From the sequence record NC_023693.1: 64,000 bases of DNA; one strand, given 5' to 3'. The number at the start of each line of letters is the position of its first letter. Positions within the stretch are counted from its first letter, which is position 1. This document shows positions 52,374-54,925 of this stretch, piece by piece. The position numbers and the translations under genes were made by a program. Origin of the DNA: Escherichia phage phi92. Below the pieces are notes generated by a model. The model was given only the letters and a program-made list of their open reading frames with translations. It was not told the DNA's origin and did no database searches.

Positions 52374-52507
52374 AGTTATCTTTAATGTAGCTTGTAATCT
52401 TACTTTAGCAGAGTAAACTTTCGGCAGATGGTGGCAGCCATTTTACCGATACCCCAATACTTCATAGCTAAGTGCCGCAAACACTGGCTATTTTAAAGAT
52501 AATTTAT

Positions 52508-52583
52508 ACATCGTTAGCTTAGTTGGTAGAGCAAGGGTCTTTTAACTCCAAGGTCGAAGGTTCGAATCCTTCACGATGTACCA
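52508..52583 (+). tRNA. tRNA-Lys-like (anticodon TTT), weak anticodon stem
   Basis: perfect acceptor ACATCGT/ACGATGT, D-arm GCTTAGTTGGTAGAGC, loop CTTTTAA, T-arm GAAGG-TTCGAAT-CCTTC, CCA; anticodon stem only about 3 bp. Confidence 0.55.
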
Positions 52584-53281: not shown

Positions 53282-53311
53282 TTGACAAAGGGGCTAATAA
53301 TATGTTAGAGT
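53282..53311 (+). promoter_or_regulatory. sigma70-like promoter (TTGACA-N18-TAGAGT)
   Basis: upstream of tRNA-Gly. Confidence 0.45.
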
Positions 53312-53322
53312 AATATTGTTAA

Positions 53323-53397
53323 GCGGGTATAGTGTTAATGGTAGCATATGAGGTTTCCACCCTCCAGGTGCAGGTTCAAGTCCTGTTACTCGCTCCA
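53323..53397 (+). tRNA. tRNA-Gly (anticodon TCC)
   Basis: manual fold: acceptor GCGGGTA/TACTCGC, anticodon loop TTTCCAC, T-arm GCAGG-TTCAAGT-CCTGT, CCA. Confidence 0.6.
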
Positions 53398-53828
53398 AGA
53401 TTATTTAAATGGAATCGCTAGAGAAAATTTCTCTTTTCGCTCATGGTTTTCTCCTTCAAACTCTAGCGGTTCTTTTTAAGTGATTTTTTAGTTTATTGGA
53501 GATTCACTGCCTTAGTGTGAGCTAAAATCGAGGAGCCATCGAACTGTCTGATTAATGATTTGCGAATCATTATAGTTTTAAGACCCCGGCAGTTTTATGG
53601 TGTACCTCTTGAATGTGAATGATGACGGGTTTATGGTTATCCTGGTCGTTAAATATCCAAAAACCTATGTTCCCCTTGAGGGCTTGCGCAGGCAATGCCA
53701 ATAAGTCCTGCATTTTCATTTAAAAGAGAATTTATAATGGAAAAAGATGAACTTAAGTATGCTAAGCCTCTGGCTTCTGCTGCACGAAAAGCAGTTCGTC
53801 ACTTTGTGGTAACACTGAAGTAATTTAT

Positions 53829-53903
53829 TGGAGATTGGCCTAGTGGGAAGGCAACGGCCTTTGAAGTCGTGATGACTAGGTTCGATTCCTAGATCTCCAG
53901 CCA
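53829..53903 (+). tRNA. tRNA-Gln (anticodon TTG)
   Basis: manual fold: acceptor TGGAGAT/ATCTCCA, anticodon stem ACGGC/GTCGT loop CTTTGAA, T-arm CTAGG-TTCGATT-CCTAG, CCA. Confidence 0.65.
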
Positions 53904-53910
53904 AGATTTA

Positions 53911-54322: not shown

Positions 54323-54387
54323 ACAAATACCTCCCTTCTGGTGTAATGATTAAATTACATTGACACTTCAAGGAACTCATAGCCGGG

Positions 54388-54463
54388 TAGATTTAAAAGA
54401 GTATGGTACTCAATATGGCTCCAAACCATAGATCAGGGGGTTCGATTCCTCACCTTGCTGCCA
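54388..54463 (+). tRNA. tRNA-Trp-like (anticodon CCA), acceptor stem not resolved
   Basis: perfect anticodon arm TATGG-CTCCAAA-CCATA, D-stem GAGT/ACTC, T-loop TTCGATT, 3' CCA; 5' acceptor strand does not pair well by eye. Confidence 0.4.
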
Positions 54464-54544: not shown

Positions 54545-54656
54545 AACTCCGTGCCAGCGGTGTCTTCGAAGAACAAGCCTAGTTCCTTCTGAGATGGAGG
54601 GGTGCGACTCCTTAACGCACAATATACTACTACTAAATACTTATCAGGAGATATCA

Positions 54657-54925
54657 TGTATACTTTAAAAGTAATTCGCAAGTTTCCTCAAGAAGAGGAA
54701 GTAAGAATTTATAACACTGTACCATTCGTAGTAAATGAAGAAGAATTCTTTTATTGCTTAGAAGATGAAGTAATTATTCAATATCATTGGGAAGGTTACG
54801 ACAGACAAGATGGTGTTGTAGCTTCTGTGCTTGCTGGTGATAGAGTGTTATTCATTCACAAAACTGAATCAGCATATTTAATGAATGATAAAGGACAAAC
54901 TGTTAAAGTAATTAACAGACCATAA
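54657..54925 (+). CDS. hypothetical protein
   Basis: ATG 54657 with AGGAGA SD; in frame with track ORF 54602-54925. Confidence 0.5.

Follow-up and report, generated by a model that had tools for sequence, protein, structure and literature searches.

A tRNA-cluster gap of phage phi92 holds a 332-bp insert of probable T4-like origin, in permuted order and with structured RNA modules

What occupies the gap between two neighboring tRNA genes of Escherichia phage phi92 in which few open reading frames (ORFs) are found? The window analyzed here, a stretch of 64,000 nucleotides of phi92 DNA, contains at least 15 tRNA genes clustered on the + strand according to ARAGORN and Rfam, and its closest public relatives are phi92-like myoviruses of the Stephanstirmvirinae, genus Justusliebigvirus (SD2, PD06, muut, and others). 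Both tools place tRNA-Gly(tcc) at 53323-53397 (+) and an intact tRNA-Gln(ttg) at 53829-53903 (+) at the left and right borders of the gap, which measures 431 bp (53398-53828). An earlier note on this DNA had singled out this ORF-poor gap, together with a second ORF-free stretch at 52374-52507, as candidate non-coding transcripts or decayed tRNA copies. The gap is real and has the limits given there. The ORFs of the region comprise one of 28 codons (53737-53823), an antisense ORF overlapping tRNA-Gln (53716-53904), which had also been listed, and several more of 20-49 codons.

When both stretches were searched with ARAGORN and, as the earlier note had proposed, with the Rfam covariance models (Rfam 15), neither matched a tRNA, a tmRNA or any Rfam family, even at E up to 10; for the window together with ten related loci, the gathering threshold and the relaxed limit (E up to 10) both returned tRNAs only. 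A simple consensus scan predicted a sigma-70-like promoter-like site upstream of tRNA-Gly at 53282-53311 (+), composed of TTGACA, 18 nt, TAGAGT and a TG extension (10 of 12 consensus matches). The same scan called neither a promoter-like nor a terminator-like site between 53492 and 53828, and for the insert described below an independent small-RNA gene with its own promoter and intrinsic terminator was rejected on this ground.

Sequence comparison indicates that the gap is composite, consisting of a native spacer (53398-53491) and a 332-bp insert (53492-53823, +) that is 98-100% identical to T4-like phages. Used as a query, the insert matched about 970 phage records, nearly all of them T4-like Straboviridae, with up to 99% identity, and a host or plasmid origin was rejected after blastn against PLSDB and 5,426 complete E. 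coli genomes found nothing. Positions 53505-53736 (+) correspond to a complete T4-like rIII-30.9 intergenic region, containing what we term modules A, B, D, E, and F and the ribosome-binding site (RBS) of gene 30.9. The collinearity with T4 extends to 53745, into the first bases of gene 30.9, and over these 241 nt the T4-like contigs L020 and L021 are 99.2% identical and T4 itself 97.9%. The remaining part, 53739-53823, aligns collinearly with the final 85 nt of rIII (98.8-100% identity). The insert is present in only 15 Justusliebigvirus records (the window, muut, SD2, and twelve others) and missing from close relatives, so that roughly one quarter of the phi92-like records bear it (15 versus about 60 carrying the native spacer). 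In JLBYU50 and most phi92-like phages, the first 94 nt of the gap are followed directly by tRNA-Gln.

The two T4-derived blocks do not stand in their T4 order. Pairwise BLAST aligned query positions 1-241 with positions 1299-1538 of the T4 locus and query positions 235-319 with positions 1201-1285; the rIII piece, which comes first in T4, comes last in the insert, which is thus a circular permutation of the T4 segment. The two alignments overlap by 7 nt, an imperfect repeat GG(A/C)AAAA that is common to rIII codons 55-57 and the start of gene 30.9. The head-to-tail junction (ATGG|AAAAAGATG) lies inside this repeat, at 53739-53745. We found the junction sequence only in the 15 Justusliebigvirus records and two matching IMG/VR contigs, and in none of the T4-like records, of which about 950 carry the rIII-30.9 region.

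The ends of the insert are equally well defined. The 13-mer TTTATTGGAGATT occurs exactly twice in the window, 332 bp apart, at 53492-53504 (+; 15 of 16 matches when extended to 53489) and at 53824-53836 (+), where it ends with the opening 8 nt of tRNA-Gln. The left copy had been described as a repeat of the tRNA-Gln leader and start at about 53494, which proved accurate apart from the exact position. A 13-nt direct repeat is expected 0.003 times within 431 bp, so its occurrence is not a matter of chance. In T4 this 13-mer directly follows the rIII stop codon, in phi92-like phages it starts 5 nt ahead of tRNA-Gln and reaches 8 nt into the gene, and in insert-free relatives it is found in a single copy. 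By these alignments the 13-mer is a short homology duplicated at both ends of a foreign insert, marking the left and right recombination junctions, and not a tRNA remnant. A transposon or MITE was rejected, given the lack of terminal inverted repeats and the prior existence of the duplicated 13-mer in the donor beside the rIII stop codon.

We conclude, with a probability of about 0.8, that the insert is a cassette recently acquired from a T4-like phage, lodged beside tRNA-Gln and next to a native, covarying spacer. The direction of transfer, from T4-like to phi92-like phages, is clear because the spacer is syntenic in every T4-like genus examined and because the insert holds rIII coding sequence.

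Two alleles of the insert were found among the phi92-like phages. The window type has its best match in L020/L021, and the A150 type in L025. The A150 group ("Campylobacter phage") consists of Justusliebigvirus records marked unverified, whose junctions are the same as those of the window. The A150-type insert contains a 44-nt extra hairpin, which L025 shares, together with several linked substitutions; in addition, the loss of 1 nt shifts the frame of the 28-codon ORF (four records). Between the alleles the left flank is 99.5% identical and the inserts 84% (blastn alignment, 44-nt indel included). This may reflect either two captures, in which the homologies dictated the same junctions, or one capture later converted by another T4-like phage. 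The alleles have different T4-like donors as their matches, and in either case exchange between these families is ongoing and repeated.

The native spacer (53398-53491, +), of about 94 nt, has a 23-bp outer stem, in which 53399-53423 pairs with 53461-53485, a conserved interior, and a T-run after the stem. The larger inverted repeat comprises 53397-53423 and 53461-53487. The earlier note had reported a small hairpin and T-run at the start of the gap; both are there (GAGAAAATTTCTC at 53421-53433, followed by TTTTCGC), nested within the larger repeat, and the small hairpin is just the tip of the native-spacer structure. The interior enclosed by the outer stem contains ...UCAUGGUUUUCUCCUUC... and is invariant. 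The fold has a z score of -4.4, and in a comparison of KP13-26, Tr1, and phAPEC8 the stem was 97.8% paired with double-sided changes in 6 of 23 pairs. The spacer occurs across the Stephanstirmvirinae, in phi92-like phages with and without the insert, and a search with it returned 128 records, with no T4-like phage among the matches listed. This comparison identifies it as a long covarying stem under selection. The stem and T-run could stop some transcripts upstream of the insert. Twelve nucleotides of the native spacer (53426-53437) are complementary to the 30.9 RBS (53722-53733), close to what would be expected by chance.

The second ORF-free stretch, 52374-52507 (+), likewise exists; it sits between tRNA-Ser(gct) and a tRNA that is annotated as tRNA-Lys(ttt) in relatives. 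It is a structured inter-tRNA element with an outer stem and three hairpins, that is, four helices (z = -2.95). Its homologues are unannotated, 73-85% identical, and always abut tRNAs, in Justusliebigvirus, Phapecoctavirus, Vequintavirus, and T5-like Tequintavirus; the search returned 182 records, and none of the matches listed was a T4-like phage. In the alignment 99.7% of the cells are paired, most pairs are invariant, and double-sided changes affect 4 of 37 pairs, which lends weak to modest covariation support to the structure. The same three variants of the second hairpin recur in different phage families, indicating exchange between families within tRNA clusters.

Turning to the T4-derived part, the rIII-30.9 spacer is annotated as empty in T4 and RB3. 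Across T4-like genera it is a mosaic of modules, namely A, B, an optional insertion that is 44 or 154 nt long and always placed at the same point, D, E, and F; the module order is shuffled in the T4-like phages of Klebsiella, of Yersinia, and of the genus Karamvirus. As a single sequence the whole T4-derived spacer folds no better than shuffled sequences (z = -0.81), and the case for structure therefore rests on comparative data, module by module.

Module B (53526-53616, +) forms an irregular hairpin, roughly 90 nt long, that combines the helices P1-P4 with conserved internal loops. Among 17 distinct sequences, 98.1% of the cells are paired and 14 of the 26 pairs show compensatory double changes. 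None of 500 shuffles reached this covariation, slid controls dropped to 25-63% paired, and RNAalifold predicted the same fold unaided. A covariance model built from the alignment (R1) scores the single copy in the window at 115 bits and detects no module B in the rIII-30.9 spacers of the Klebsiella, Karamvirus, and Yersinia T4-likes. The G-U pairs lie on the sense strand, which fits an RNA on the rIII/30.9 strand, in the window the tRNA strand.

The other modules are shorter. Module A (53505-53517, +) is a hairpin read from the sequence, CACUG-CCU-UAGUG, whose pairing is kept in the variant CGCUA-CCU-UAGUG of other T4-like genera; a tRNA ancestry of this module was rejected, as 676 of 5,000 shuffles match tRNA-Gln equally well outside the 13-mer. 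Module D (53619-53665, +) is a hairpin GACGGG...CCUGGUC flanked by conserved AUGAUG and GUUAAAUAUCCAAAAC; it is kept across T4-like genera and in the Vequintavirinae phage LTH01, with 93.1% pairing and double-sided changes in 3 of 6 pairs. Modules E and F (together 53672-53711, +) are present in all T4-like genera inspected, E as CCC-UUGA-GGG CUUG and F as a hairpin GCAGG...CCUGC just before the 30.9 RBS. The F stem, as read from the sequences, is swapped for unrelated complementary sequences in STML-198, MHG19, and Klebsiella phages.

By these comparisons, compensatory changes preserve the base pairing of modules B, D, E, and F among T4-like phages, and that of B in two further subfamilies as well. 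The modules are therefore functional structures, as RNA (or as a single strand), in at least some hosts. Judging from where they lie in T4, they would most likely act in cis within the 30.9 leader, in processing, in stability or by binding a protein. The window lacks gene 30.9, and a function specific to that gene would be orphaned here. Even with E values of up to 10, no Rfam family matched the T4 spacer or its LTH01, XT18, Klebsiella, Karamvirus, and Yersinia phage versions. In the literature we found no described RNA for the T4 rIII-30.9 spacer or for the tRNA clusters of T5 and phi92, a weak result given that older T4 and T5 papers lie mostly outside the coverage.

Module B also occurs outside the T4-like phages, in the Vequintavirinae and Gordonclarkvirinae, and it is an indel in Kuravirus and Vequintavirinae. 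LTH01 and A73, of the Vequintavirinae, have an 80%-identical copy directly 5' of the first tRNA of the cluster, which ends in AAGAGAATTTA, a sequence also found just before the 30.9 start of T4. Kuravirus XT18, SU10, and their relatives have module B between a hypothetical gene and the terminase gene. At this site phiEco32 and EK010 are empty, EP335 retains a P1-P2-only remnant, and NJ01 has a different hairpin. A metagenomic contig of Nieuwekanaalvirus type contains a full module B with further compensatory changes in P1. No module B-like sequence was found in E. coli chromosomes or plasmids (the 5,426 complete genomes and PLSDB). Pattern scans of IMG/VR for divergent versions returned T4-like and phi92-like copies and chance coding matches, and a metagenome scan added only T4-like and Kuravirus-type copies, neither revealing a new host lineage. 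This portability argues that module B is independent of gene 30.9.

We infer that read-through from the tRNA-Gly promoter would produce the insert as a long structured 5' leader of tRNA-Gln, from which RNase P would then release it. Nevertheless, the insert may be a selectively neutral scar, tolerated since tRNA-cluster spacers accept insertions, with modules that work only in T4-like phages; we hold this to be a serious possibility, of somewhat less than even probability. It agrees with the presence of the insert in only about a quarter of the phi92-like records, with the absence of gene 30.9 from the window, and with the extra tRNA found at the same site in KP13-26 and Tr1, which points to an insertion hot spot; moreover, the insert copies are too alike to show selection in the recipient. 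Against this, module B has been kept independently, with compensatory changes, in Kuravirus, Nieuwekanaalvirus, and Vequintavirinae, in none of them with 30.9 adjacent, suggesting that its function is portable, and two alleles that match different T4-like donors speak for repeated exchange rather than a single dead relic.

Regarding the route of acquisition, the permuted order makes it likely that the insert is the footprint of a small circle or head-to-tail duplication integrated by short homology. During co-infection, illegitimate recombination in T4-like DNA would give rise to a head-to-tail duplication or to a circle of about 330 bp, with the first crossover at the GG(A/C)AAAA microhomology between rIII codons 55-57 and the 30.9 start. 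This molecule would then integrate via a single crossover in the 13-16-nt homology just 5' of tRNA-Gln, keeping the tRNA intact. If formed in a T4-like infection, such a mini-circle would carry the junction ...TTTATAATGG|AAAAAGATGAAC.... By chance alone, a 330-bp circle and an AT-rich genome of 146 kb should have about three 13-mers in common, so the 13-mer need not carry any biological meaning. In T4-type phages, inverse PCR has revealed circles of 400-1400 bp whose crossovers lie near start codons, and a role as vectors of horizontal transfer was proposed for them (Arbiol et al. 2010, PMC2839356).

Excision of a circle followed by one crossover would be the simplest route, and we infer the circle itself from the permuted product. 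The same origin could have been reached with no free circle, if the donor had transiently duplicated the stretch from rIII codon 56 to the 30.9 start in tandem or if the replisome had changed templates three times at the short homologies, the unit between the two 13-mers finally being copied into the phi92-like genome. The product would be identical to that of circle integration, and T4 forms tandem duplications at short homologies. We nevertheless consider this route unlikely, since the duplication junction is seen in none of the T4-like records with the region, and since it requires more recombination events than excision and a single crossover.

A bolder proposal attaches a benefit to the transferred RNA. 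Module B, and perhaps other spacer modules, could be an undescribed functional RNA passed among at least four lineages of virulent coliphages (Straboviridae, Stephanstirmvirinae, Vequintavirinae, and Gordonclarkvirinae). The site 5' of a tRNA would be adaptive as a place from which RNase P releases a discrete RNA, with decoy or regulator of a host or competitor factor as candidate roles, and the insert would be a record of mini-circle-mediated gene flow. Taken as a whole, we regard this proposal as rather improbable.

The selected cargo could also be a micro-protein. The earlier note had judged the 28-codon ORF to lack a credible RBS; the ORF exists (53737-53823, +), and it does have one, that of T4 gene 30.9, whose translation start it uses. 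It is chimeric, running from the ATG(G) of 30.9 in frame into rIII codons 56-82 and the stop codon, and its product, MEKDELKYAKPLASAARKAVRHFVVTLK*, is exactly Met followed by RIII residues 56-82. RIII interacts with the holin T and with ribosomal protein S1 (PMC6832632, PMC9409239), and the peptide might, for example, act on the holin T/RIII/S1 of a co-infecting T4-like competitor or on host S1. The in-frame fusion behind a genuine T4 RBS and the fact that the retained part of rIII is still alignable as DNA in distant T4-like genera (hits to query 237-317) would fit such a role. We consider it very unlikely, however. The prior probability of an in-frame junction is one in three, the captures in Vequintavirinae and Kuravirus have the RNA modules with no rIII fragment, and neither full-length rIII (about 82 aa) nor gene 30.9 is found within the window, which retains residues 56-82 behind a foreign start codon. 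The frameshift in the A150-type records argues that the peptide, at least, is dispensable. The micro-ORF is therefore considered a by-product of the junction that could be translated.

Finally, a native small-RNA gene or decayed tRNA copy that evolved in place inside the tRNA cluster, as the scarcity of ORFs, the location on the tRNA strand, and the duplication of the first 8 nt of tRNA-Gln at the start of the interval had suggested, is for 53492-53823 already refuted by our comparisons and retains almost no probability, as this sequence is missing in most close relatives, is 98-100% identical to T4-like rIII-30.9 DNA with rIII coding sequence included, has no tRNA-model match, and shows no significant similarity to tRNA-Gln past the 13-mer. 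What survives of the earlier description is the non-coding character of the locus, its location on the tRNA strand, and a selected secondary structure, which comparative analysis indicates for the native spacer, for the T4-derived modules B and D, and for 52374-52507; the gap itself is mostly not native.

The insert provides a precise footprint of gene flow between phage families, in which non-coding T4-like DNA appears in a phi92-like phage with 99% identity. Its permuted order points to a small circular or head-to-tail intermediate, of a kind proposed for T4-type phages and for which there has been little natural evidence across families. In addition, the long spacer that follows rIII in T4, whose genome is among the most thoroughly studied, emerges as an overlooked mosaic of conserved structured RNA modules that are absent from Rfam and from all annotations seen; one of them recurs in three further coliphage lineages as an indel polymorphism. 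In several phage families the tRNA clusters have conserved, unannotated structured elements in their spacers, such as 52374-52507, and tRNA clusters may thus serve as expression platforms for other small RNAs. The processes are known ones (short-homology modular exchange and structured phage RNA), of which this locus is a new and well-resolved example; the RNA modules are apparently undescribed.

Several known systems resemble parts of this locus. Like mobile elements that reside in tRNA genes, the insert leaves the tRNA intact and has a short piece of the tRNA gene duplicated at its far end. It differs from them in lying at the 5' rather than the 3' end of the tRNA, in involving only 8 nt of it, in its size of 332 bp with no integrase encoded, and in a match at chance level. 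Stable non-tRNA RNAs are known from phage tRNA clusters, as exemplified by species 1 and 2 of T4 (rnaC and rnaD). These too are discrete structured elements between tRNA genes, and co-transcription with the tRNAs and release by tRNA-processing enzymes would be common to both cases. In contrast to these T4 RNAs, the searches with the native spacer and with 52374-52507 gave no T4-like phage among the matches listed, whereas the insert query gave mostly T4-like ones.

Phage intercistronic processing hairpins, e.g. the RNase III sites of T7, and structured mRNA leaders are likewise long irregular hairpins with conserved internal loops, placed between genes on the sense strand, and the G-U pairs of the modules are strand-specific in the same way. 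The modules are known from comparative sequence data, show no sequence or Rfam relationship to those sites in our searches, and include one, module B, that is mobile between phage families, a property undescribed for T7-type hairpins.

A further parallel is with the PeSL mini-circles of T4-type phages (Arbiol et al. 2010, PMC2839356; Comeau et al. 2014, PMC4122927), circles of a few hundred bp that arise from short-repeat recombination near gene starts and have been proposed as cassette vehicles with no dedicated integrase. A PeSL cassette has an early sigma-70-like promoter next to a terminator stem-loop, flanking the mobile segment; in the present case no such pair was called inside the insert by the simple consensus scan, and the crossover sites are a 6/7-nt microhomology and a fortuitous match of 13-16 nt. 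Furthermore, the cargo is a non-coding leader with a gene fragment instead of an ORFan gene, and the recipient is a phage of an unrelated subfamily. A mini-circle of this type would yield the permuted order and the duplicated short homology seen in the phi92 insert.

The boundary between the native spacer (53398-53491, downstream of tRNA-Gly) and tRNA-Gln is an insertion hot spot. In two other Stephanstirmvirinae, KP13-26 and Tr1 (loci L070 and L071), an additional tRNA, which has a long variable arm and the annotation tRNA-Glu, lies between these two elements and occupies the exact site of the T4 cassette of the window, the 332-bp insert from the T4-like rIII-30.9 region (53492-53823). The spacing from tRNA-Met to tRNA-Ile and downstream differs among SD2, muut, and JLBYU50, which suggests further insertion-deletion polymorphism within the tRNA cluster. 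A 107-aa ORF at 54602-54925 follows tRNA-Ile, and the annotation of its counterpart in phage SD2 is HNH homing endonuclease.

The segment 51874-51952 is a tRNA according to the Rfam tRNA model (38.6 bits), with no ARAGORN call, and 54386-54462 gives only a weak match to the tRNA-Sec model, contains GGTTCGATTCC, ends in GCCA at its 3' end, and is preceded by TTGACA; both may be unusual or degenerate tRNAs. ARAGORN reports 52508-52583 as "tRNA-???" with a two-base anticodon, and the counterpart of this gene is annotated as tRNA-Lys(ttt) in muut and JLBYU50. The interval between tRNA-Ser and tRNA-Lys (52374-52507) holds a conserved four-helix element, about 115-134 nt long, which has no match in Rfam and has unannotated homologs in the tRNA clusters of phi92-like, phAPEC8-like, rV5-like, and T5-like phages. 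Its second hairpin exists in three variants, which are common to different phage families.

Within the native spacer, the invariant interior (53447-53470) reads AUGGUUUUCUCCUUC, which could be the start of a mini-ORF (MVFSF...), the length of which varies among Stephanstirmvirinae; this interior also includes a CUCCUU run, an anti-Shine-Dalgarno-like sequence. Positions 53426-53437 of the spacer are complementary to the imported 30.9 ribosome-binding site (53722-53733) over 12 nt (11/12), which is about the chance level given the AT-rich interval.

Among the comparison loci, L003 (MG065639) and three sister records are labeled "Campylobacter phage" (A150, A145, C3, and A110a) and marked UNVERIFIED. 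All four genomes belong to Justusliebigvirus and are almost the same as those of E. coli phages; the Campylobacter host label looks doubtful.

In some phages, the T4-type rIII-30.9 spacer itself is interrupted at one fixed point by a conserved, roughly 154-nt module, GGCAAGTGCATGCTACCCCGAGG...CAGATAAGAGC, found in L007 (phage U115, 1010-1165) and also in L049, L050, L051, L015, L022, L024, and L085. It occurs alone in the rIII-30.9 spacers of Klebsiella and Karamvirus T4-like phages, sometimes carries the annotation of a 60-aa ORF, and has no match in Rfam. The pre-terminase site of Kuravirus takes different hairpin cassettes: NJ01 (L053, 215-260) has a hairpin, GCTGTATGGATGCTGG...CCAGATATGCAGC, unrelated to module B (the irregular hairpin of about 90 nt from the T4 rIII-30.9 spacer), at the position where XT18 carries module B.
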